NCBI GenBank assembly: GCA_963696465.1
Contig: CAVOKC010000005.1
Coordinates: 37,562 to 101,561, forward strand
Direction of reading: 5' to 3'
DNA: 64,000 bases
DNA from: an uncultured Gammaproteobacteria bacterium
Lineage (GTDB): Bacteria > Pseudomonadota > Gammaproteobacteria > Thiohalobacterales > Thiohalobacteraceae
Notes under the pieces: model-generated
Told to the model about the DNA's origin: nothing
The model's database searches: none
What the model saw: only the letters and a program-made list of their open reading frames with translations
In this document: positions 272 to 50,822 of the stretch, one piece after another
Layout of the letters: the number at the start of each line of letters is the position of its first letter
Numbering within the stretch: position 1 is the stretch's first letter
Translations under genes and position numbers: made by a program

Positions 272-835
272 TTACCGGGGCACAAAGGCATTCATAAAGC
301 GCATCGGTCCAGTCGAATTCTGGATATTTCGCCCCATCGACCGCGTGTCGTAGCGCATCTCGTAGACGGACACTGACATCATTGCCATAGACTGCGTCAT
401 ACGCTCTATGCTCCCAGACATGGCGATGATCGCCACAGTGTCCTTTTCGATGTCTAAGCTCAGCTTGTCGATATTCCCCGAAATATGATGCACATCCTTG
501 GTCACGTTACTGAAATCTCCAGATACCAGATGCATGTCGTCTGATATCACCACCATCCGCTCTGCTATCACGTCCATACGACCCGTGATGTGACTGACGC
601 TGGCGGTCAACTGGTAAATCAGATAGAACCCATAAGCCGCCAGCAGCACGAAGGCGAACAGCAACGGGTAGACGACCAGCTCCCAACGCCGCGCACTCGC
701 TTCAAAGCTGCGCGCGAATTTATCCATAACAGCGGACATGCCCTGAAACTGATCAGCACCACCACGCCCCTCTTCCGCTGGCCCGCATATTTCAGCAGGT
801 GCCTTATCCTCATCGACGGACGTTGGTTTCGTCAT
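272..835 (-). CDS. membrane-anchored hypothetical protein with heptad-like repeats
   Basis: 187-aa ORF with one central TM segment (WELVVYPLLFAFVLLAAYGFYLIYQL). This is followed by repeated ~12-aa units (ITGRMDVIAERM / VSGDFSNVTKDV / ISGNIDKLSLDI / MSGSIERMTQSM). It lies 47 nt upstream of the GTPase gene on the same strand. No family recognised. Confidence 0.5.
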   Translation of the reverse strand: MTKPTSVDEDKAPAEICGPAEEGRGGADQFQGMSAVMDKFARSFEASARRWELVVYPLLFAFVLLAAYGFYLIYQLTASVSHITGRMDVIAERMVVISDDMHLVSGDFSNVTKDVHHISGNIDKLSLDIEKDTVAIIAMSGSIERMTQSMAMMSVSVYEMRYDTRSMGRNIQNSTGPMRFMNAFVPR

Positions 836-39363: not shown

Positions 39364-39537
39364 ACCCGCTACTCCTTAACGCAATTTGATTTCAAACGGT
39401 TACGGGGCAATGCTGCCGATATAGTCATGCCCTCGATGTCCCAATTCCCTGTACCGTTCGCGATACCGATACATAGATGTAGCTGAGATTCAAAGCGTTA
39501 CCTGCAAGAGCTGAGCCAGAAGCGAGCGCCGCCGTGA

Positions 39538-40194
39538 TCACCGGCGCACCAGGCGAAAAACCTGCTCATCCAGGCGGGTCAGACCACGCGCCTGAAAGCG
39601 TGGGTTATCGATGAGGATGTCCTGACCACCGAGCGGGTCGATATGAAAATCGGCGGCGAACAACGCCTCCACCTCGGCCGCACTCACCGCGAACGGCGGG
39701 CCGTCCATTTCCTGGGGCGGATAATCCAGCGTGATCAGCAAGACCGGTACGCCCGAGGGCAGCAACGCGGCCATCTGTTGCGCATAGCGTTTGCGCATCG
39801 GCGGCGGCAAAGCGATCAGCGAGGCGCGGTCGTAGACAGCGGTGATGCCCTGCATATCTGCCTGGGTCAGATCGAAGAAGTCGCCTTCCAGCAGCGTAAT
39901 TTCGTCGGCCTGTCGCCGCACAAAACGGGCATCGGCCTGCGCTGAAAAGGCCAGCGCGTTTTCCTCGAAAAAATCAGCGACCGCAATCGGGCTGAGTTCC
40001 ACCCCCAGCACCCGCTGCCCCTGCCCGGCCAACCACAGCATGTCACGACTCTTGCCGCACAGCGGCACGAACACACAACCGCCCAGCGCGGCCTGCAATA
40101 ACGACCAGTAGTGTTGCAGGTGCGGATTGATTTCCGCCTGGTGAAAACCGATTTCGTCCGCCTGCCAGCGGGCATGCCAGAAACTAGGGTCCAT
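39538..40194 (-). CDS. tpm: thiopurine S-methyltransferase family (Tpm/TmpA)
   Basis: MDPSFWHARWQADEIGFHQAEINPHLQHYW...VFVPLCGKSRDMLWLAGQGQRVLGVELS matches the TPMT N-terminal and SAM-binding signatures. Start taken at the internal ATG 40194. Confidence 0.8.
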   Translation of the reverse strand: MDPSFWHARWQADEIGFHQAEINPHLQHYWSLLQAALGGCVFVPLCGKSRDMLWLAGQGQRVLGVELSPIAVADFFEENALAFSAQADARFVRRQADEITLLEGDFFDLTQADMQGITAVYDRASLIALPPPMRKRYAQQMAALLPSGVPVLLITLDYPPQEMDGPPFAVSAAEVEALFAADFHIDPLGGQDILIDNPRFQARGLTRLDEQVFRLVRR

Positions 40195-40208
40195 CTTCAG
40201 CTCCTCAA

Positions 40209-40956
40209 TTATCCCAATCGCGCCGACAATTCGCGCGCAGTCGCTTTGAGCAATTCGATCCACTCGTCACGCCGGCGTTCTATCGGCGCGGATATCGACA
40301 GACCGGCGACAATCTGACCGCTATCGTCATGCACCAGCACGCCGATACAACCCACGCCGGTCTCGGCCTCTTCATCATCGTAGGCGAATCCCGCACGTAT
40401 GCAGCCGGAGACATGTTGCACCAGTTGCTCCTCGTCGGTGAGACTGTAACGCGTGTAGCCCGGCAGTTGGGTGCGTTGCGCATAGTCGCGACACGCCGCC
40501 TCACTGCCCTCACCCAGCATCAGCTTGCCGACGGCCGTTACATGCAGCGGCGCACGGCTGCCGATGCGCTGCTCGACACGCATCATGCGCTCGGGCAGGG
40601 CACGATCGAGATACACCACTTCATCGCCCTGACGCACGGTGAGATTGACGGTCTCGCCGATCTGGTCGCGCAGCGCCTCCATCAACGGCCGTGCCTCGCG
40701 GCGCAGATCCTGATGCGAGGCGACACGGCTGCCCAGTTGCAGCAAGCCGGATGCCGAGTCGGTAATTGCTGCCCTCGCGCGCGACCAAACCATTTTCGAT
40801 GGCAGCGGCGAAAATACGGAACGCGGTCGACGGATGCAGTTCGGTCTCGGCGGCCAGGACTTTCAGGCTGACCGGATCACGGTTGCGGGCGAGCGCCTCC
40901 AGGAGCGAGGTCAGGCGATCTATGACTTGGATGGAACTGGTTTCTTGCTTGGACAT
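40209..40956 (-). pseudogene. IclR-family transcriptional regulator (one frame break near 40770)
   Basis: ATG 40956 gives MSKQETSSIQVIDRLTSLLEALARNRDPVSLKVLAAETELHPSTAFRIFAAAIENGLVAREGSNYRLG (wHTH). ORF 40209..40793 supplies the effector domain (ETVNLTVRQGDEVVYLDR...GSRAPLHVTAVGKLML...GFAYDDEEAETGVGCIGVLV...AGLSISAP). Confidence 0.8.
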
Positions 40957-41082
40957 ATTTCGTATCGTGGAATCGATTGCGGATTGCGGAATCCTACGCC
41001 GGGCCGTACTGTGTTTGCAACTGAACACTGACCGGCCATACCCGCTTGGCCATGCCCGATTACAAAGACCAGGAGTCCGACC

Positions 41083-43303
41083 ATGAGCACCGCCGCCGAA
41101 CTGAACCTGTCCGCCACCGATTTCCGCGACGGTATCCAATACTTCGCCCAGCCCTGGCCGGGCTCCGACCAGCTCGCCGCCAAACCGGTCATCGGCGCCA
41201 CCCAGACCAGCATTGCCGATCCGTCCGACCCGGCCGCGGTGTTCCAGACCTTATTGGCCGCCGATGCCCTGCGTTATCTGACCCTCCAGATCTGCGGCAG
41301 CAAAGCCTCCGGCCATCCGGGTGGTTATGCCTCGTCCGCCGAGGCGCATGCCGCGCTGATGATGCTCGGCCATAAGCACATCGTCACCGAGGTGGGTCAT
41401 CACGCCCCCGGTTTTTACAGCTCCATGTTCCTCGACCGTTCGCTGGAGGCAATGGACATCCACACCGTGTCCGATCTGCGCGCGCGCTTCCGCGAACGCC
41501 ACGGTCTGCTCGGCCATCTGTCCGGCGCCATCCCCGGCCTGCTCGCGCCGGCCGGACCGTTGGGTCAGGGCCAGCACTTCGCCATGGGCGGTGCGCTGCT
41601 CAACCCCGGCACGCTGTTTCCCCGTGACCATTGGTGATGGCGGTCTGGGCGAGCCCTACATCATGTCGTCGTTCATGCACTTCAAGACCGCGTTACCCGC
41701 AGGTGACCAACTTCCTGCCGGTGCTGGTGTGGAACGGTTACAGCCAGGAACATCATTCCATGGTGTCGCTGATGTCCAACGAGGCGATGACCGCCTATTG
41801 GAAGGCGCACGGCTTCGACGACGTGATCCTGATCGATGCAAAGGAATTCGACGATGCCGATCAAGACGGCGCCTATGTCGACAGCACGCGCTTCTCGCAT
41901 GTCGCAGCGGCTCGCTTTCCAGGGCGCGGTGCTCGAAGGTATCGACGCGCGCGGCCAAACAGGCACGCTCCGGCACGCTCACCGCCTTCATCATCAAGCA
42001 GCTCAAGGGTGCCGGCGTGCATGCCATCGGCGCCAAGGCACACAACCTGTATCCGGCCGACACGCTGGATGCCGAGCACATCATCAGCGGTCTGAAACGC
42101 CGTGCGTTGAACGCAGAAGCCTGGGAACTGGTGCGCACGAATCTATCGCGCGCCGGTGGTGGCCCTGCCGGAAAAACCGTTGCGACCGAGCGTGAACGCG
42201 CCTTGCCGGATCTCGGCACATTGCCGCTGCAGGATTTCCCGTTGGGTGAAAACCAAGTGCCGGCGACCGCTTTCGGCGCCGTGGTCGCCGCCGTGGGTCA
42301 ACGTGATCCGGCGTTCGTGGTGAGTAATGCCGATGGTAACGAGGCGTCGGCGATGAAGAACATCAACGATGCGCTGAAGATCCGCCATCCGACGACGGAT
42401 CCGCTCTACAACCAGTCGCCGAACGGCCAGGTGTATGAGCCGCTCAACGAAGATGCCTGCGCCGGTCTGGCCGCCGCCATTGCATTGTTCGGCGGCCGCT
42501 CGCTGTGGCTGTCCTACGAGAGCTTCGCCATCAACGGCTGGCCGATTGTGCAGACCGTGTCGCAGGCGATGGCCGAACTGCGCCGCAAGACGCCTTCGCA
42601 GGTGGTGATGTTCACCGCCGGTGCGTTGGAGCAAGGCCGCAACGGCTGGACGCATCAGCGTCCCGAGATCGAATCCTACTGTGCGGCGATGATGCGCAAC
42701 GGCAATCACTACCCGTTGTTCCCCTGCGATGCCAATATGATCCAAGTGGCGTATGACTGGGCGCTCGGCACCACAATAAGTCGATTGCCATCTTCGCCTC
42801 GAAGACCGCTCTGCCGGTGCGGACCACACTGACGCAGGCGAGCATCGCCATCGAAGACGGCGCGGTGAGCCTGTATGAAACGGCCACTGGCAAAGGCCCG
42901 CTGATCGTGCTGGCCGTGGCCGGCGACATGGTGTTGTTGCCCGCGTTCACGGCGCGCGACGCACTTGAAAAGGCCGGCGCCCGCGTGCGCATCGTCTGCA
43001 TCGCCAACCCGCGTCGCTTGTACCGTCCCAGTGATGTGAGCTGGAACAGTGTCAGCGAACCGGATGGTCAGTTCATGGACGATGCGAGCTTCAACGAACT
43101 TTTCGGCGGCGATGCCCTGCTCGCCATCAGCGGCGGACCGAGCGCGACACTCGAACCGGTGTTGCTGCGCAGCTCGAGCCAAACGTGACGCCCTGTGCTG
43201 GCAGCGCGGCGAAACCGTCGCCGCCGCCAGTGAACTGATGAGCTTCAACGGCGTGGATGCACCGGCCATCGAGGCACGGGCGCGGGCGTTGTTGGGATTG
43301 TAA
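41083..43303 (+). pseudogene. divergent ThDP-dependent enzyme of the phosphoketolase/transketolase superfamily (~740 aa, at least 5 frame breaks)
   Basis: Collinear fragments: SGHPGGYASSAEAHAALMMLG, GPLGQGQHFAMGGAL, VTIGDGGLGEPYIMSS, LPVLVWNGYSQEHHSM, SNADGNEASAMKNINDAL, GRNGWTHQRPEIESYCAAMMRNGNHYPLFPCDANM (compare phosphoketolase NGFSHQDPG ... Y.P.DAN), LAVAGDMVLLPAFTARDALEKAGARVRIVCIANPRRL and a terminal WQRGETVAAASELMSFNG. Confidence 0.6.
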
Positions 43304-43336
43304 TCCACACCCTGTAGCCTGGGTGAGCACAGCGAC

Positions 43337-43503
43337 GTAGGATGGGTGGAGGCGTATTTTGTCGCAACCCATCACAGCGGATCGATGGGTTGCGCTCGCT
43401 CCACCCATCCTACGGTAGCGAGTGACGTAGGATGGGTGGAGGCGTTGTTTGCCGCAACCCATCGCGACAACCGATGGGTTACGCTGCGCTCCACCCATCC
43501 TAC
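43337..43503. repeat. two tandem 77-bp REP-like palindromic units (GTAGGATGGGTGGAG...CTCCACCCATCCTAC)
   Basis: Units lie at 43337-43413 and 43427-43503. Each has perfect 15-bp outer inverted arms and an inner AACCCATC...GATGGGTT inverted pair. Confidence 0.85.
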
Positions 43504-43531
43504 AATACTAAGACACCGAGAAAGGCTTTTC

Positions 43532-43688
43532 GAACCGCAAAGGCGCAAAGAACGATTTATTGAAATTAATGTAATGTTGCTTTGACATTTTCATTTGTCT
43601 TTCTTGGCGCCTTTGCGCCTTGGCGGTTCAATAATCTTTTCGCCCTTGGCGGTTCAATAATCTTGGCGTCCTTGGCGGTTCAATAATC
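43532..43688. repeat. MITE/REP-like element of the 'CTTGGCGCCTTTGCGCCTTGGCGGTTC' family with a 3x 26-bp tandem tail
   Basis: The left arm gaaccgcaaaggcgcaaagaa (43532-43552) is inverted relative to ttcttggcgcctttgcgccttggcggttc (43601-). ccttggcggttcaataatc repeats at 43618, 43644 and 43670. Confidence 0.75.
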
Positions 43689-43707
43689 AACAGGCATGAG
43701 ATAGACC

Positions 43708-45056
43708 ATGACCGAAACCAAACTCGTAGTGCTCGACGATGATCCGACCGGTTCGCAGACGGTGCACAGCTGCCTGCTGCTCACCCGTTGGGATGTGGAC
43801 ACGCTGCGTGAGGCGTTGCTGGATGCGGCACCGCTGTTCTTCGTCTTGACCAACACGCGTGGCATGGATGCACAACGGGCTGAGACGATCACCCGCGAGG
43901 TTTGTCAGAATCTCAAAGTTACATTGGATGATCTGGCGCGCTCCGGCCGCGTCATCGAACCGATTGTAATCAGCCGCTCCGATTCGACTCTGCGTGGACA
44001 TTATCCGGTCGAGACCGATGTGATCGCCGAGGAATTGGGGCCATTCGATGCGCATTTCCTGATCCCCGCCTTTATCGAGGGCGGACGCATCACGCGGGAC
44101 GGGATACATTACCTGTTGGTCGATGGCAAACCGGTTCCGGTCAACGAGACCGAATTCGCCCGCGACTCAGTGTTCGGCTATAAGCACGCCTTTCTGCCGG
44201 ACTACATCGAGGAAAAGACGCGCGGCCGCATCCACGCCGATCAGGTCGAACGCTTCAATCTTGCAGATATCCGTAGCGGCTGCCTGGATCGTCTGTTGGC
44301 ATTGCGTGGTAATGTCGCCTGTGTGGTCGACGCCGAATCGTATGCTGATCTGTCCGCCTTCGCCGCGGATCTCAAGGCCGCTGCACAACAGGGCAAGCGT
44401 TTCCTGTGCCGTAGCGCGGCGGGCATTATCAGTGCGCTCGCCGCCTTGCCGCCGCAACCGATTGCGGCCGAAGACATGCGCCGCAGCGTGCGCAGCGATC
44501 GACCTGGCGCGGTAGTGGTCGGCTCGCATGTCAACAAGACCACGCGTCAATTGCAGCAACTGCTGGCCGAACCGGATACCGCACCAATCGAAGTGGATGT
44601 CACGCGTCTACCGGATCATTCGAAGGCGCTGCTTGGCAACGTGCTCGAACGCATCGAGACCGCCCACGCCCAGCATCTGAGCTCGGTGATCTTCACCAGC
44701 CGCACCGAGTTAGCTTCGACATCGAGGAGACGCGGCTCGCCTTCGGTGAAATGGTCTCCGCATTCCTGATGGAGGTGGTACATCATCTGCCGGCCGATAT
44801 CAGTTTCCTGATCAGTAAGGGCGGCATAACCTCCAACGATATGCTGTCGCAGGGATTGAGCTTGCGCACCGCACGCGTGTTGGGCCAGATTCTGCCCGGC
44901 TGCTCGGTGGTACTCTGCCCCGAGGACCACCCGCAGTATCCGCATCTGCCGGTGGTGATCTTTCCCGGCAATGTCGGTGACGATGGCGCGTTGGCGACCG
45001 TCTTCCGGCGACTTGCAGGGCCTGCGCCGATACAACAGCATCGGAATCAAATGTAG
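43708..45056 (+). pseudogene. four-carbon acid-sugar kinase family protein (DUF1537; OtnK/DtnK-like), one frame break near 44720
   Basis: The N-terminus LVVLDDDPTGSQTVH is the DUF1537 DDxTGS signature. SDSTLRGHYPVE and a nucleotide-binding C-domain follow. ORF 44751..45056 supplies ISFLISKGGITSNDMLSQGL...VIFPGNVGDDGAL. Confidence 0.7.
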
Positions 45057-45198
45057 TTCGCATCGCAAAATTTGATGTAGGAACAGCCCTGGCCGCGAAC
45101 TTATATTCAGGCCACATCGCTCGCATGGGTGATATCACCGCACAATAGACAGTGGTTGTGGCTGGTCGCGGCATGGCAACATCCGGATAATCGCAGGC

Positions 45199-46764
45199 AT
45201 GACTGAATTGGCACGGCATCACATAAACCCGACCCAACGCGCACAGACGCAACGCGACCTAGCCGCCGCGCTGCTTGCGATCTTGCCGGCCGATGCGATC
45301 CTGGCGAACGATGAATCACTGCGCCCCTATGAATGCGACGGACTGTCCGCCTATCGGTGTGTGCCACTGGCGGTAGTCTTACCCGACAGCGTCGAGCAGG
45401 TACGCGCCATTTTGAAACTCTGTCATGCACGCAAGATACCGGTCGTGGCGCGCGGTGCCGGCACCGGTCTATCGGGCGGTGCACTGCCACATGCCGATGG
45501 ATTGGTCCTCAGCCTCGCGCGTTTTAATAAAATTTTGTCGATCGATCCTGAGCAGCGCAGCGCCCGCGTGCAACCCGGTGTGCGCAACCTCGCCATTTCC
45601 GAAGCTGCCAAGCCGCTGGGTTTGTATTACGCGCCCGACCCTTCTTCGCAGATCGCCTGCACCATCGGCGGCAATGTCGCGGAGAATTCCGGTGGCGTGC
45701 ATTGTCTGAAATACGGATTGACGGTGCATAACATCCTGCGGGTGGAAATGCTCACCATCGACGGTGAATCGCTCACCCTCGGCAGTGATGCATTGGATGC
45801 AGCCGGTTACGATCTGCTCGCACTCATCACCGGCTCTGAAGGCATGCTCGGTGTGCTGACGGAAATCACCGTGCGCCTGCTGCCGATTCCGCAACGCGCG
45901 CAAGTCGTACTCGCCGCCTTTGATGACATCGAAAAGGCCGGTCGGGCCGTGGGCGATATCATTGGCGCCGGCGTGATTCCCGCCGGTCTGGAAATGATGG
46001 ACCGCCTCGCCATCCGCGCCGCCGAGGATTTCGTCCACGCCGATTACCCAGATTGTGAGGCCATCCTGCTCTGCGAAGTCGATGGTACCAACGAGGAAGT
46101 CTCAGAACACATCACGCAGGTGCGCGCACTGTTACTCGCCGCCGGCGCTATCGAAGTTCGCACTGCGCGCGACGATGCCGAGCGGCAGCTGTTCTGGAAG
46201 GGCCGCAAGGCCGCCTTCCCCGCCGTCGGCCGCCTGTCGCCCGATTATTACTGCATGGACGGCACCATCCCACGCCGGCATCTGCCGCAGGTACTCAAAC
46301 GCATCGGCGAACTCTCGCAGGAATATGGCCTGCCGGTGGCGAACGTATTTCACGCCGGCGACGGCAATCTGCATCCGCTGATTCTCTACGATGCCAACAA
46401 GCCCGGCGAACTGGAACGTACCGAGGCCTTCGGCAGCAAGATTCTGGAACTGTGCGTCGAGGTCGGCGGCACCATCACCGGCGAACACGGCGTGGGCATG
46501 GAAAAGATCAACCAGATGTGCGTGCAGTTCGCCTCGGCGGAGCTACAGCAGTTCCATGCCGTGAAGGCCGCCTTCGATCCAGACGGCCTCTTGAATCCCG
46601 GCAAGGCCGTGCCGACGCTGCACCGCTGCGCCGAATTCGGCGCCATGCATGTGCATCACGGTCAACTGGTGCATCCGGAACTTGGAGCGGTTCTGATGGC
46701 TTCTACCGCCATGACGGCAATTATGTTGAACCGCCAAGGCGCAAAGACGCCAAGAAATTCGTAA
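45199..46764 (+). CDS. glcD: glycolate oxidase FAD-binding subunit GlcD (ORF artificially extended by a 1-nt insertion near 46684)
   Basis: Collinear with GlcD throughout (VVARGAGTGLSGGALP, GGNVAENSGGVHCLKYG, GEHGVGMEK, LLNPGKAVPTLHRCAEFGAMHVHHG). Removing one G from ttggag (46683-46687) restores PELERF followed by TGA (46694-46696). As assembled, the ORF reads on into a repeat element. Confidence 0.9.
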   Translation: MTELARHHINPTQRAQTQRDLAAALLAILPADAILANDESLRPYECDGLSAYRCVPLAVVLPDSVEQVRAILKLCHARKIPVVARGAGTGLSGGALPHADGLVLSLARFNKILSIDPEQRSARVQPGVRNLAISEAAKPLGLYYAPDPSSQIACTIGGNVAENSGGVHCLKYGLTVHNILRVEMLTIDGESLTLGSDALDAAGYDLLALITGSEGMLGVLTEITVRLLPIPQRAQVVLAAFDDIEKAGRAVGDIIGAGVIPAGLEMMDRLAIRAAEDFVHADYPDCEAILLCEVDGTNEEVSEHITQVRALLLAAGAIEVRTARDDAERQLFWKGRKAAFPAVGRLSPDYYCMDGTIPRRHLPQVLKRIGELSQEYGLPVANVFHAGDGNLHPLILYDANKPGELERTEAFGSKILELCVEVGGTITGEHGVGMEKINQMCVQFASAELQQFHAVKAAFDPDGLLNPGKAVPTLHRCAEFGAMHVHHGQLVHPELGAVLMASTAMTAIMLNRQGAKTPRNS

Positions 46765-46920
46765 ATATTGTGTGAAACGTACAAGCCGGTTGTATATCTG
46801 TCGGAATGGTTCAGGGTATGCGACTCTCGAGGCGCCCGAATGACACATCAATGAATTCATCTTGGCGTCTTTGCGCCTTGGCGGTTGAAAAAAGTTTTCC
46901 TTTGTATCTTGGCGGTTCAG
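46726..46920. repeat. MITE-like element of the CTTGGCG...GCCTTGGCGGTT family between glcD and glcE
   Basis: A near-perfect ~29-bp terminal inverted repeat, ttgaaccgccaaggcgcaaagacgccaagaa (46726-46756) and tcttggcgtctttgcgccttggcggttgaa (46860-46889), flanks ~100 bp. An extra half-copy atcttggcggttcag is at 46906-46920. Confidence 0.8.
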
Positions 46921-46927
46921 ACAACCC

Positions 46928-47991
46928 ATGTCTGACAAAACTGCAGCCGATACAATCGTTGAACAGGTGCGCGCGGCCGCCGCGCAGGCCACGCCGTTGG
47001 TCATCCGCGGCGGCGGCAGCAAGGATTTTCTGGTCGACGCACGAAAGGAACGACGCTCGATGTCAGCGGACTACAAGGCATCGTGCATTACGAACCCACC
47101 GAACTCGTCATCACCGCGCGTGCCGGTACGCCGCTGATAGAAGTTGAAGCCGCACTGGCGGACCGCGGTCAGATACTCGGTTTCGAACCGCCGCATTTCG
47201 CAGCGAATGCCACACTCGGCGGCACACTTGCCTGCGGCCTGTCCGGACCGGCGCGGCCGTTCCGCGGGAGCGCGCGGGATTTCGTGCTCGGTACAAAGAT
47301 CATCAACGGCATGGGCGAGCCATTGAGCTTCGGCGGCGAAGTGATGAAGAACGTCGCCGGCTATGACGTCTCACGCTTGATGTGCGGTGCCTATGGAACG
47401 CTCGGGGTACTGCTCGAAGTCTCACTCAAAGTCCTGCCCCGTCCGGCCAGCGAAATAACCCTCACGTTGGAACTCGATCACCACGACGCCATCACGCGCA
47501 TGAGCGAATGGCAACGCGATCCACTGCCGCTATCCGGCCTGTGTTATGACGGCGACCGCTTGCATGTGCGTCTGTCGGGAGCCGAACAGGCGGTCAGCGC
47601 GGCAAGGCGTCGCCTCGGTGGCGAGATTGAAGTCGACGGGGCCACATTCTGGGAACGCCTGCGCGAGCAACGCGGCGCCTTCTTCGAAGGCACTGGCGAG
47701 CTCTGGCGCCTCTCCGTTGCCTCGACAACGCGCACGATCGCGGTCACCGGCAAGCAGTTCATCGACTGGGGCGGCGCCCTGCGTTGGCTGAAGACGACAG
47801 AGCACGCGGAGAACATATTTGCTGCGGCCAGCGCAGCGGGCGGTCATGCTATGCGCTTTCGCGGCACAGCCGCTGCGCACCAAGTTTTTCAACCCTTGCC
47901 GGCGCCCTTACTCGCCCTGCATCAGCGTCTGAAAAAATCATTCGATCCACACGGCATCTTCAATCCCGGCCGCCTGTACCCGGAGTTTTGA
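46928..47991 (+). pseudogene. glcE: glycolate oxidase FAD-binding subunit GlcE (one frame break near 47045-47080)
   Basis: MSDKTAADTIVEQVRAAAAQATPLVIRGGGSKDFL is followed, in the second frame, by IVHYEPTELVITARAGTPLIEVEAALADRGQILGFEPPHF...MKNVAGYDVSRLMCGAYGTLGVLLEVSLKV.... Confidence 0.85.
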
Positions 47992-49208
47992 ATGCAGACC
48001 TCGCTCACGACAGCGTTCCTGAAAACAAACGAAGGCCAGGAGGCAGATGCCATCTTGCGCAGCTGTGTGCATTGCGGTTTCTGCACCGCGACCTGCCCGA
48101 CCTATCAGCTCTTGGGAGACGAACTCGACGGCCCGCGCGGACGCATCTATCTCATCAAGCAGATGCTCGAAGGTCAGCCGGTCACACGCGAGACGCAGTT
48201 GCATCTCGACCGTTGCCTGACCTGCCGCGCCTGCGAGACCACCTGCCCTTCGGGCGTTCGGTATGGACGGCTGGCCGACATCGGTCGCGGTATCGCCGAA
48301 CAGCAGATCAACCGTCCCTGGCTGGAGCGCCTGCTTTCGTCGCTTGCTGCGTGCGGTCATTCCATACGCCACGCGCTTCGGTGTACTGCTGCGCATTGGT
48401 CAGGCACTGCGACCTGCATTGCCGGCCGCACTGCGCCGCAAGATTCCTGCACGGCAAGCGCCTGGCGTCTGGCCGTTGCCACGGCATGCACGACGCATGC
48501 TGGTGCTCGCCGGCTGCGCGCAATCCAACACAACACCCAACACCAATGCCGCTACCGCACGCGTACTCGATCGGCTGGGAATATCACTCATCGTTGCACC
48601 CGCGGCAGGTTGCTGCGGCGCACTCAGCCATCATCTCAGTGCCGAGGATGAAGCCTTGAACTTCATGCGCCGCAACATCGATGCCTGGTGGCCGTCTATC
48701 GAGCAGCGGCATCGAGGCCATCGTCATGACCGCGAGTGGCTGCGGGGTGATGGTCAAGGATTACGGTGCGTTGCTCAAGGACGACACGACCTATGCAGCG
48801 AAGGCCGCCAAGGTCACGAGTTTGACGCGCGATCTGAGTGAAATACTCGCGACAGAGGATCTTTCCGCCTTGCGCGTATCCGGCAAAAAACGCCGCATCG
48901 CCTTCCACGCGCCCTGCACTTTGCAGCACGGCCAGAAATTGACTGGCGCGGTGGAAAGTATCCTGATGAAGTTGGGTTTCGAACTCACCGACGTGCACGA
49001 CGGCCATTTGTGCTGCGGCTCGGCGGGCAGCTATTCGCTGCTGCAGCCGGAACTGTCGATACGGTTGCGCGACAACAAGCTGAATGCGTTACAGGCTGAG
49101 ACACCGGAATTGATCGCGACGGCGAACGTAGGTTGTCAGTTGCATCTTGCCACCGGCAGTGATGTGCCGGTGCTGCATTGGATCGAACTGCTGGATACGC
49201 CTGCCTGA
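47992..49208 (+). pseudogene. glcF: glycolate oxidase iron-sulfur subunit GlcF (two frame breaks)
   Basis: CVHCGFCTATCP and CLTCRACETTCP ferredoxin motifs lie in ORF 47992... The middle part is in ORF 48263..48841 (LVLAGCAQSNTTPNTNAATARVLDRLGISL...GCCGALSHH). The C-terminal CCG domains are in ORF 48681..49208 (AFHAPCTLQHGQK, CCGSAGSYSLLQPE, ANVGCQLHL). Confidence 0.85.
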
Positions 49209-49385
49209 TCAGAAATTCAATAGACGCCGTTTTAGCGGCGGGCGTCCCTGCCCACCAACCGTCAGACCTTTGCCATGCTATCGAGAATGACCAGACACTT
49301 CGACCTACCCTCGAGCTCGGCGCTGAAACGCCACACCTCATTTCTCTCCCGCACAACGCACGCCTTCATGACGGCTAATTGGTCG

Positions 49386-50822
49386 TCAGACGATTTTGCA
49401 AACTGCGGATGAGAATGCGGACACTCCAACCGTGTTGTAAGCCCTCACTCGGAAGCAAACTTGCGCCCCGGTCTGTAAGTTCAGATCATTGGCCAAGGTT
49501 GTGTAGGTGGTTGATGTACCCGGCACAGTAGACGCAAAGGTGCTTACGGTGCTGGAGGTTGCGCCGTAATAAACATAATAACCCAGGACACCACCTGAAC
49601 TCGCACTCCAGGAGACGCTCAGGCTTTTGCTGGTCACGCTGGCGCAGGTCGAGCAGGTCACTTTGATCGATACCGTTGCTGTGGCTATATCACCATCGGC
49701 ATCCTTCACTCGATAGGTGAAGCTATCGCTGCCGGCGAATCCACTGGTGGGCGTATATAGAATTTTATTACCCGTTTGAACGCTGGCCTTGCCGTGTGAC
49801 GGTACAGAAATTACCGAGACGGTAACCGGTGTATTCGCCAACCCAGTGTCATTTGCCAACGGGCTGATTGTAACCGCCGTACCCGTGCTGCTAGCACTGT
49901 CATTGACCGCAACCGGTACCGTGTCGACACTCGTCGCCGCAGCGGTGTTCGTAGTCGTAGTCGTGCTCGTAGTGGTGCTGACAGGCGCATTGCTACCCGC
50001 CGTATAGGCCTGACTCACCTCGGTGGCAGTGAATGCACGATCGTAGATGGCAAGCCGATGGAAGCTGCCTAACCAGGGACGACCACCGGTCAGCTCATTG
50101 CCCAGCCCCAGCCGATAGGTACCATCCCAGTTACTGAAATCGCCGCCTCGGGTGGTCTGTAGCTTCTTGACGCCATTAAGATACAGCGTGACAGTGCCAC
50201 TGGCATTGCGGGTGTAAACCACATGCGTCAGGTTCGCACTGAGCGTACCTGCAGCACTGGAAACTTCCGGCTTCCCACTGGTGTCTGTATTGGTAGTACG
50301 CAGACGTACGTCGTAGCTAGCCTGCTCTTGGCCAAGGGTGAAGTTGCGCAGGGTGGGCTCCTTGGACAGCGTAAGAATGCGCGCTGGGCCATTCTGCGTC
50401 GTGTTGGCCGGCTGAACCCAGGCGTCGATCGTCACCGCATTGCTGACCTTGAGCGCAGTATTCACCTTGGTGGCGGCGATGCCGGAGGAAATCAGTGTAG
50501 CGGAATTGATTTTCAAGCTGCCGTAGGCAGACCAAGTCACTGCTGCCGGGTTGGCAATGGTCAGATTAAGGGGGAGTCCTGTCCCGCTGACGTCGTATAC
50601 CGTACTGCCACTGCCCTCATTGAACGTGTAGAGGACCAGTGGTGCGCTCCCAGCAACTGCGAGGCTGAAAGAACTCGACGCAGCGACCAAACCGCTAGCA
50701 AGGATGCATCGATATGCAACTCGCGCGACAATTCGACGGACCGTGCGCAAAATTTGCAAGGTGTATACAGCATTCGATTTATTAACCGATGAAACATTTA
50801 TTACATACGGCATGACTGGCAT
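49386..50822 (-). CDS. secreted multidomain surface protein: LamG/concanavalin-like + Thr-rich linker + cadherin/VCBS-like Ig + fibronectin type III
   Basis: 478-aa ORF. The LamG-like block is LVLYTFNEGSGSTVYDVSG...LTHVVYTRNASGTVTLYLNG...WLGSFHRLAIYDRAFT. The linker is TTTSTTTTTNTAAATS. The VPVAVNDSASSTGTAVTISPLANDTG...DSFTYRVKDADGDIATATVSIKV domain follows. The FN3-like C-terminus is LSVSWSAS...GYYVYYG...FRVRAYN. The gene and its upstream spacer are visibly less GC-rich than neighbouring genes. Confidence 0.7.
   Translation of the reverse strand: MPVMPYVINVSSVNKSNAVYTLQILRTVRRIVARVAYRCILASGLVAASSSFSLAVAGSAPLVLYTFNEGSGSTVYDVSGTGLPLNLTIANPAAVTWSAYGSLKINSATLISSGIAATKVNTALKVSNAVTIDAWVQPANTTQNGPARILTLSKEPTLRNFTLGQEQASYDVRLRTTNTDTSGKPEVSSAAGTLSANLTHVVYTRNASGTVTLYLNGVKKLQTTRGGDFSNWDGTYRLGLGNELTGGRPWLGSFHRLAIYDRAFTATEVSQAYTAGSNAPVSTTTSTTTTTNTAAATSVDTVPVAVNDSASSTGTAVTISPLANDTGLANTPVTVSVISVPSHGKASVQTGNKILYTPTSGFAGSDSFTYRVKDADGDIATATVSIKVTCSTCASVTSKSLSVSWSASSGGVLGYYVYYGATSSTVSTFASTVPGTSTTYTTLANDLNLQTGAQVCFRVRAYNTVGVSAFSSAVCKIV

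Follow-up and report, generated by a model that had tools for sequence, protein, structure and literature searches.

Kinases of the DUF1537 family, which combine an SBD_N with an NBD_C domain, include OtnK, DtnK and DenK; OtnK phosphorylates the ketol CH2OH of 3-oxo-tetronate, and YgbK of Escherichia coli, a putative 3-oxo-tetronate kinase, is encoded in the ygbJKLM operon together with a dehydrogenase, an isomerase and a decarboxylase. Phosphoketolase (Xfp) and transketolase (TktA/CbbT) belong to a superfamily of enzymes that use thiamine diphosphate (ThDP), and glycolate oxidase genes form part of the glc operon of E. coli, which carries malate synthase and is controlled by GlcC, a GntR-type regulator. 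Relatives of all these occur side by side in the window, the whole stretch of 64,000 nucleotides analysed here (contig CAVOKC010000005.1, positions 37,562 to 101,561), which comes from a metagenome-assembled genome (MAG; G000) of the Thiohalobacteraceae. As seen from the open reading frame (ORF) listing, three-frame translation, Pfam and tblastn, the genes follow each other in the order and at the positions given by an earlier note on this DNA: an IclR-family regulator on the minus strand, PKL, a DUF1537 kinase, glcD, glcE and glcF; PKL is the name used here for a ThDP enzyme of ~738 aa of the phosphoketolase/transketolase superfamily. The first three genes form a real, conserved and uncharacterised module, for which a role at the glyoxylate node is plausible. 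In the window, its parts are as follows (window coordinates throughout).

40209-40956, minus strand: IclR-family regulator (Pfam IclR_C E 6e-41 and HTH_IclR E 1e-8, on two pieces; tblastn against intact orthologues)
40951-40998, no strand: operator-like conserved region between the IclR and PKL genes, at the IclR start codon (motif variant)
41083-43303, plus strand: PKL (Pfam XFP/Transket_pyr; intact orthologue P0001)
43708-45056, plus strand: DUF1537-family kinase (SBD_N + NBD_C) of a divergent subfamily (Pfam; tblastn against orthologues)

The conservation of this arrangement is seen in 80 related loci from Gallionellaceae, Sideroxydans, Sulfuriferula, Hydrogenophilaceae, Thiogranum, Sedimenticola, Thioalkalispiraceae, Acidiferrobacterales, Mariprofundus, and the window's own genus. 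Wherever a locus reaches 300 nt past PKL (75 of 75), the next gene downstream, on the same strand, is of the DUF1537 family, and a divergent IclR gene lies upstream of PKL in 77 of 77; the adjacency of the ThDP gene with kinase and regulator, which the earlier note had seen in one place, thus holds in every locus that extends far enough, and the IclR-PKL-kinase trio is an obligatory unit. The median gap between PKL and kinase in the related loci is ~70 nt, and several pairs overlap by 1-4 nt. The window departs from this pattern: the kinase gene, said to follow the ThDP gene directly, is separated from it by a 404-nt spacer filled with REP/MITE-like repeats.

The PKL protein matches the models of both parent families weakly. 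In an intact orthologue (from G039), the Pfam domains XFP, XFP_N and XFP_C, all of which are found in Xfp, reach 49.7, 38.4 and 26.8 bits, barely above their gathering scores; the best NCBIfam phosphoketolase model gives 93 bits against cut-offs of at least 777, the phosphoketolase equivalog 81 against 1518, and the transketolase models (TIGR00232/NF0045xx) 31-41 against 488-788. The best solved relative is the phosphoketolase of Bifidobacterium (E 2e-28; B. breve 3AHC, B. longum 3AI7), and a Foldseek search with the AlphaFold model of PKL (pLDDT 79, pTM 0.82) returns phosphoketolases at E 5e-29 and TM 0.68-0.71 and transketolases nearly as high, at E 5e-26 and TM 0.61-0.65, with 17-19% sequence identity to both. 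Within the clade, identity is at least 57%; in a HMMER search over 1.84 billion representatives clustered at 50% identity, one full-length relative is found at 57%, and the next matches are at or below 30% identity and 84 bits. In a tree that includes canonical and short phosphoketolases, with the transketolases of related genomes as the outgroup, PKL is monophyletic (99 SH-aLRT), with short internal branches and with stems of 1.65 and 1.84 to the other phosphoketolases; it falls outside the canonical phosphoketolase clade, in agreement with the identity gap from 57% to 30% or less. Model scores, fold, identity gap and separate clade together show that PKL is neither an ordinary phosphoketolase nor an ordinary transketolase; it forms a tight clade of its own, about equally distant from the canonical members of both families.

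The intermediate character of PKL is visible in its motifs, all five of which (GHPGG, GPLGQG, GDGG, NGWTHQRPE, and YPLFPCDAN) are found as previously read in the three-frame translation of the window. Where Xfp, which has ~800-825 aa, carries GHWGT and GGELGY, PKL carries GHPGG and GPLGQG, sharing GHPG and GPLGQG with transketolase; the middle domain, unlike that of transketolase, is phosphoketolase-like. True transketolases are encoded elsewhere in the PKL-bearing genomes. A canonical xfp of ~800 aa (XFP_N 576-613 bits) is also present in all four near-complete genomes that were checked for it, three related ones (G011, G005, G039) and that of Mariprofundus ferrooxydans PV-1; in the first three it adjoins ackA (L099, G039:C1:1559000-1574000; L100, G011:C84), and pta was not found in these three. 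Since the same genomes thus hold a canonical xfp-ackA pair, PKL does not look like a spare phosphoketolase.

The 57% outlier (P0121; L096:180-2423) lies at a contig start, so that its upstream side is cut off by the contig end; downstream it has a GntR-aminotransferase gene and an Opp-type ABC transporter instead of a kinase, and is uninformative. A protein of 26% identity (P0221) lies in a glycosyltransferase/methyltransferase context, belongs to another group, and was set aside. A search for longer proteins returned none above 1293 aa; a PKL-kinase fusion of ~1190 aa would fall in a length range covered by the best 120 matches only, so that the search gives no evidence either way. Look-alike clusters of ~735 aa in the ESM Atlas are mostly cyanobacterial, which is a lead only.

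For the active site, the residue list published for the Bifidobacterium enzyme (PMC10547157), which includes the ten residues in the first line below together with Gln321 and His548, was mapped, apart from Ser440, onto 81 PKL sequences aligned with canonical enzymes. In phosphoketolase numbering, the state of these and three further positions in the 81 sequences is as follows.

His64, His97, His142, Gly155, His320, Glu479, Tyr501, Gln546, Asn549, His553: invariant in PKL
Trp65, Glu156: always Pro in PKL, as in transketolase
Gln321: always Asn in PKL
Asp547: always Gly in PKL
His548: always Arg in PKL

Ten of the twelve mapped catalytic residues are thus kept, as is the NGY loop of Xfp, with Gln321 and His548 as the exceptions; the Arg at position 548 is invariant in, and peculiar to, the PKL clade. 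At positions 546 and 549, PKL has the Gln and Asn typical of phosphoketolase, in contrast to the Leu and Asp of transketolase; the acceptor-binding Asp of transketolase is replaced by Asn in PKL, which sets it apart from that family, and a further difference is Arg for Glu. This pattern suggests phosphoketolase-like chemistry on a different, probably anionic, substrate, and the retained Gln546, Asn549, Tyr501 and His553 point to an acyl phosphate as product, not to free glycolaldehyde. The earlier proposal that cleavage yields a C2 unit feeding glycolate oxidation accordingly fits the active site poorly.

The kinase belongs to the DUF1537 family: the window copy gives 192 bits to SBD_N (PF07005; E 2e-56) and 41 and 70 bits to NBD_C (PF17042) on two pieces, and an intact orthologue gives 184 and 134 bits to the two domains. 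Its place within the family was determined from intact orthologues (L021; alignment A1, with 21 orthologues) and not from the window sequence. Among the NCBIfam models only that of DtnK matches, at 76 bits against a cut-off of 450, so that the kinase is no equivalog of DtnK, OtnK or DenK; it is 25% identical to YgbK, to which hhalign aligns it with 92% probability, and it finds no entry of the PDB as a single sequence, a profile search reaching DUF1537 entries at E 5.5e-5. The dehydrogenase, isomerase and decarboxylase set of the ygbJKLM operon is absent here, and the partner of the kinase is instead the ThDP enzyme. No literature was found that joins DUF1537 to a phosphoketolase-like enzyme; work of 2026 on tetronate and apionate enzymes (JBC) mentions no ThDP partner for DUF1537, and the PKL-kinase pair goes unmentioned in a comparison of the genomes of bacteria with the Calvin cycle. 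On this point, the earlier note is supported as far as the literature search reached.

The regulator has the HTH_IclR and IclR_C domains of the IclR family, an architecture it shares with the glyoxylate-responsive BhcR, IclR and AllR. The nearest NCBIfam model is BhcR, with 169 bits against a cut-off of 350 (orthologue in L044); the IclR and AllR models also match, and all equivalog cut-offs are missed. The ligand that the protein senses may be glyoxylate or another small 2-oxo or 2-hydroxy acid. Among 65 related intergenic regions screened with a loose pattern, 31, belonging to several families, hold a motif of ~40 nt with the core TTGTGAAAACGATT flanked by ATTTC../..GCGAAAT half-sites. In each of them it is placed at the IclR start, and the variant in the window has the same layout, with GGAAT replacing GAAAT. 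This conserved motif is a candidate operator. The divergent layout beside glycolate oxidase genes is shared with the E. coli glc operon, from which the locus differs in the type of regulator and in the malate synthase carried there.

Downstream of the kinase, the window carries the three subunits of a glycolate oxidase.

45199-46700, plus strand: glcD, glycolate oxidase FAD subunit (NCBIfam; 86% identity to the same-genus orthologue)
46928-47991, plus strand: glcE, glycolate oxidase subunit (NCBIfam on the large piece; tblastn)
47992-49208, plus strand: glcF, glycolate oxidase Fe-S subunit (tblastn in three frames, 70-84% identity to same-genus GlcF)

GlcD falls just short of its models (864 bits against an NCBIfam cut-off of 897; 556 against 568 for TIGR00387), GlcE exceeds its cut-off of 284 with 466 bits on the large piece of the window (466-497 overall), and GlcF exceeds 333 with 664 bits in a same-genus orthologue. 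The counts of accessory genes are based on the 57 related loci with at least 3.2 kb of downstream sequence. In 23 of them the kinase is followed by glcDEF, and these 23 come from every main branch of the PKL tree, with a minimum of 7-10 gains or losses. The link between glcDEF and the ThDP-kinase pair that the earlier note had drawn thus recurs in many lineages, and glcDEF is an accessory in ~40% of the loci, not part of the core. In three relatives (L016:4830-6035; L038:13614-14831; L089:3973-5289), the closest relative, G006, among them, the gene after the kinase encodes a GlcF-like Fe-S protein, with neither glcD nor glcE present.

Other loci carry other accessory genes. A LIV-type ABC transporter follows the kinase in 15 loci, all of them Gallionellaceae-like, usually with a CoA-acylating methylmalonate-semialdehyde dehydrogenase (MMSDH), usually with lutABC and glcG upstream, and often with a tartronate-semialdehyde reductase above the equivalog cut-off; the LIV-type binding protein has weak structure matches only, which yield no useful ligand. 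A TRAP transporter is found in at least four loci and in G039 (L012:4157-7653; L051:5246-8745; L084:14564-16512); the binding protein of this transporter matches TTHA0766 (2ZZV), which binds lactate in Thermus, at 423 bits. A homologue of class II ketose-bisphosphate aldolase, of 280-308 aa and below all equivalog cut-offs, directly follows the kinase in three loci (L084:13678-14520; L058:13613-14488; L039:5766-6692), in two of them before glcDEF, and lies nearby in two more. The common theme of the accessory genes, as predicted from their families, is the uptake and oxidation of small 2-hydroxy acids.

Among the genomes sampled, PKL is confined to those with Rubisco. The sample comprised 200 genomes from across the class, each at least 90% complete and chosen at roughly one per family; 16 carry PKL, and the Rubisco large subunit is present in all 16, compared with 76 of the 184 PKL-negative genomes (41%). 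It was not found in G000, which at 74% completeness and full of frameshifts is uninformative on this point. Mariprofundus groups with Sulfuriferula in the PKL tree; because this tree departs from organismal relationships, the cassette is taken to move between Rubisco-bearing lineages. In five genomes examined for their metabolic setting (G000, G011, G005, G039, and Mariprofundus), no glyoxylate carboligase (Gcl) above cut-off, no GlxK-type glycerate kinase, no malate synthase, and no tartronate-semialdehyde reductase above cut-off was found, and a MOFRL-type glycerate kinase is present in four. The failure to find these glyoxylate sinks in the five genomes leaves room for a role of PKL and kinase, without proving one.

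The best explanation for these observations is a conserved regulator-PKL-kinase module in which kinase and PKL would act in succession at the glyoxylate node, their substrate being a short-chain hydroxy-oxo acid (C3-C5); its probability is judged to fall just short of even. By analogy with described enzymes, the reaction could proceed in four steps, the preferred but tentative scheme, which is on balance rather unlikely to be right in full. Like OtnK, the kinase would phosphorylate a 3-oxo-tetronate-type ketol acid at its terminal CH2OH. The ThDP of PKL would then attack the adjacent carbonyl, and the C-C bond to the hydroxy-acid part would break, releasing glyoxylate or, with a longer (C5) substrate, tartronate semialdehyde, a product in keeping with the reductase and aldolase of some clusters. 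The phosphate would leave in place of the water lost in phosphoketolase, and acetyl-ThDP would be released as acetyl phosphate; either the phosphate or the carboxylate would be held by the invariant Arg at position 548. The same bond may instead be used in reverse, by ketol transfer onto glyoxylate followed by phosphorylation. A still more specific proposal places the pair in phosphoglycolate salvage: in Rubisco-bearing bacteria, it would be an undescribed route at the glyoxylate node, proceeding either by phosphoketolase-type splitting of a phosphorylated ketol acid or by formation of the same bond on glyoxylate. Here 3-oxo-tetronate 4-phosphate, or a C5 homologue made from DHAP (dihydroxyacetone phosphate) and glyoxylate by the class II aldolase of some clusters, would be split with departure of the phosphate, to give acetyl phosphate and either glyoxylate or tartronate semialdehyde; in this form the proposal is quite unlikely.

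Several points weigh against consecutive action of kinase and PKL at the glyoxylate node. The five active-site histidines are common to the phosphoketolase and transketolase families, so that phosphoketolase chemistry is argued for only by two residues, Gln546 and Asn549, and by the middle-domain layout, and the transketolase-like N-terminal motifs could mean ketol transfer instead of a phosphoketolase-type elimination. The substrate named for PKL is a guess; the specificity of OtnK or DtnK is not transferable to a kinase as far removed from both as the scores given above, and the window cluster has no gene for making an acid of the 3-oxo-tetronate type. glcDEF is absent from ~60% of the loci, and in about a dozen the trio stands alone. 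An acetate kinase without pta had been considered as a hint of acetyl phosphate from PKL, and was rejected, as this ackA adjoins the canonical xfp. The proposal of the earlier note is supported in part: the genes are linked and PKL is distinct, and the reaction suggested there is hypothetical.

The most serious alternative, itself on the whole unlikely, is that the operon is catabolic (mixotrophic) and serves a small organic acid, either a hydroxy acid or an acid sugar, which a transporter brings in and which has nothing to do with the glycolate of Rubisco: the kinase would activate the acid, PKL would cleave it, and glcDEF or lutABC would be neighbouring oxidases of hydroxy acids. TRAP or LIV-type ABC transporters after the kinase in at least 19 of the 57 loci would be expected of such an operon, as would the similarity of the TRAP binding protein to a lactate-binding protein and the MMSDH and HIBADH-family reductase of the Gallionellaceae clusters, and IclR regulators typically govern catabolic operons. 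At most loci, however, the window included, the cluster has no transporter, and Rubisco is present in 16 of 16 sampled carriers; many carriers, such as Mariprofundus and Gallionella, are known as obligate autotrophs.

Two further alternatives concern the reaction of PKL, and both are improbable to a similar degree. In the first, PKL is an ordinary second phosphoketolase isozyme acting on xylulose 5-phosphate or fructose 6-phosphate (Xu5P/F6P), as assumed for sll0529 of Synechocystis, and the kinase is an unrelated neighbour. Databases do label PKL a phosphoketolase, most catalytic residues are kept, the ~735-aa look-alikes are commonest in cyanobacteria (as said, a lead only), and modelling papers treat sll0529, a possible member of the clade, as pket2/xfp2 (PMC7744508, PMC9034593); the first of these papers itself calls the activity of the putative cyanobacterial pket2 unverified. 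Against an isozyme stand the canonical xfp retained in the same genomes, beside ackA in three of them, scores far under the cut-off of every phosphoketolase model, the invariant Arg in place of His548 together with the transketolase-type motifs, and the absolute linkage with kinase and IclR regulator, a constant partnership that Xfp does not have.

In the second, the trio stands in for a glycerate pathway by non-orthologous enzymes: PKL would act as a glyoxylate carboligase, joining two glyoxylate to tartronate semialdehyde and CO2, a HIBADH-family reductase would form D-glycerate, and the DUF1537 protein would be the glycerate kinase. This would suit the adjacency of glcDEF and a regulator of the glyoxylate type, it would fill the lack of Gcl and of a GlxK-type kinase in the five genomes, and tartronate-semialdehyde reductase does exceed its cut-off in 9 related clusters. 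In the five genomes themselves, however, no reductase does so and four already have a MOFRL-type glycerate kinase; furthermore, a carboligase would not need the phosphoketolase-type residues that PKL retains, and known Gcl enzymes belong to a different ThDP fold family.

It remains to consider the state of the window copy. Its cluster contains 12 frame breaks, as located by tblastn with intact same-genus orthologues: one in the IclR gene (near 40745), six in PKL (~41617, 41695, 41900, 41947, 42772, and 43177), one in the kinase gene (near 44711-44721), one in glcD, where a 1-nt error at ~46683 abolishes the true stop and the assembled ORF extends to 46764, one in glcE (near 47025), and two in glcF (near 48340 and 48707). 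The earlier count of at least five breaks in the ThDP gene is thus right as to their presence, the number being six, and every other gene of the cluster is broken as well. Contigs from four independent public metagenome runs were compared over 41000-45200; the runs, the best-matching of which contained 0.31 of the sampled words, served for this indel check only. The contigs do not show the indels at 41617, 41694, 42771, 43176/7, and 44711, the last of them revealed as a 1-nt insertion in the kinase gene; a further contig, of 137 nt and free of substitutions, spans 41844-41982, the region of the breaks at ~41900 and ~41947, with two gaps only. Indels are not confined to the cluster: rpoB of the same MAG, which consists of 34 contigs, is broken into six or more pieces in different frames and shows in-frame TGA stops (C19:69413-73472; L098). 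In related genomes, PKL is encoded without interruption as a protein of 738-773 aa, with an identity of up to 97% where the sequences were compared; P0001, of 738 aa, is 97% identical to the window PKL over the central part, and the 93-97% protein identity to the intact orthologue shows no excess of substitutions. Decay of the cluster into pseudogenes, for which 12 breaks within 9 kb of assembled sequence might speak, is therefore extremely improbable, given the contigs without the indels, the equally broken rpoB, and the intact orthologues, and the objection of the earlier note that the gene might be dead fails on the same grounds. All 12 breaks are assembly errors, and the window copy is a working one, badly assembled and a poor exemplar of the module; as the indel errors are genome-wide in this MAG, ORF calls in the window need a frameshift-aware reading.

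Two spacers within the window operon are occupied by repeats.

43331-43695, no strand: REP/MITE-like repeat island in the PKL-kinase spacer (repeat search)
46719-46924, no strand: MITE-like element in the glcD-glcE spacer (repeat search)

The island consists of two 43-nt units, 31-nt inverted arms, and three tandem copies of 26 nt; the element has inverted arms of 37 nt, and shares with the repeats at 43520-43695 a core of ~13 nt (TTGGCGGTTCAAT / TTGGCGGTTCA, near-variant TTGGCGGTTGAA). Contigs of related strains omit portions of the island, with joints at 43324>43424 and 43468>43708, which argues that it is a variable insertion; the repeats in both spacers are, on this evidence, likely to be recent and variable. 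An Rfam scan of 39500-49500 gave no match. On its other side, the IclR gene adjoins a gene of the thiopurine S-methyltransferase family (39538-40263, minus strand; PF05724, E 6e-74), which is intact, unlike its neighbours.

For the PKL clade, these comparisons mean that the "phosphoketolase" annotations, and the flux models that count a second Xfp, are unsupported. For the organisms, they bear on the disposal of the glyoxylate that arises from the oxygenase by-product of Rubisco, which is unsettled for many non-plant chemolithoautotrophs; in the five genomes, glycolate oxidase is present and neither of the sinks Gcl and malate synthase was found. The module probably marks an undescribed step in glycolate or glyoxylate handling. 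Because it is strictly linked and extremely conserved, confined among the sampled genomes to those that bear Rubisco, often found beside genes for the oxidation of glycolate or lactate, and provided with its own regulator and a predicted operator, the PKL-kinase pair is a concrete and clonable candidate for the missing step. The route through phosphoglycolate salvage, if true, would add both a ThDP reaction and a natural photorespiratory bypass to those known; and if PKL does make acetyl phosphate from a glyoxylate-derived acid, it would be relevant to the design of carbon-conserving photorespiratory bypasses.

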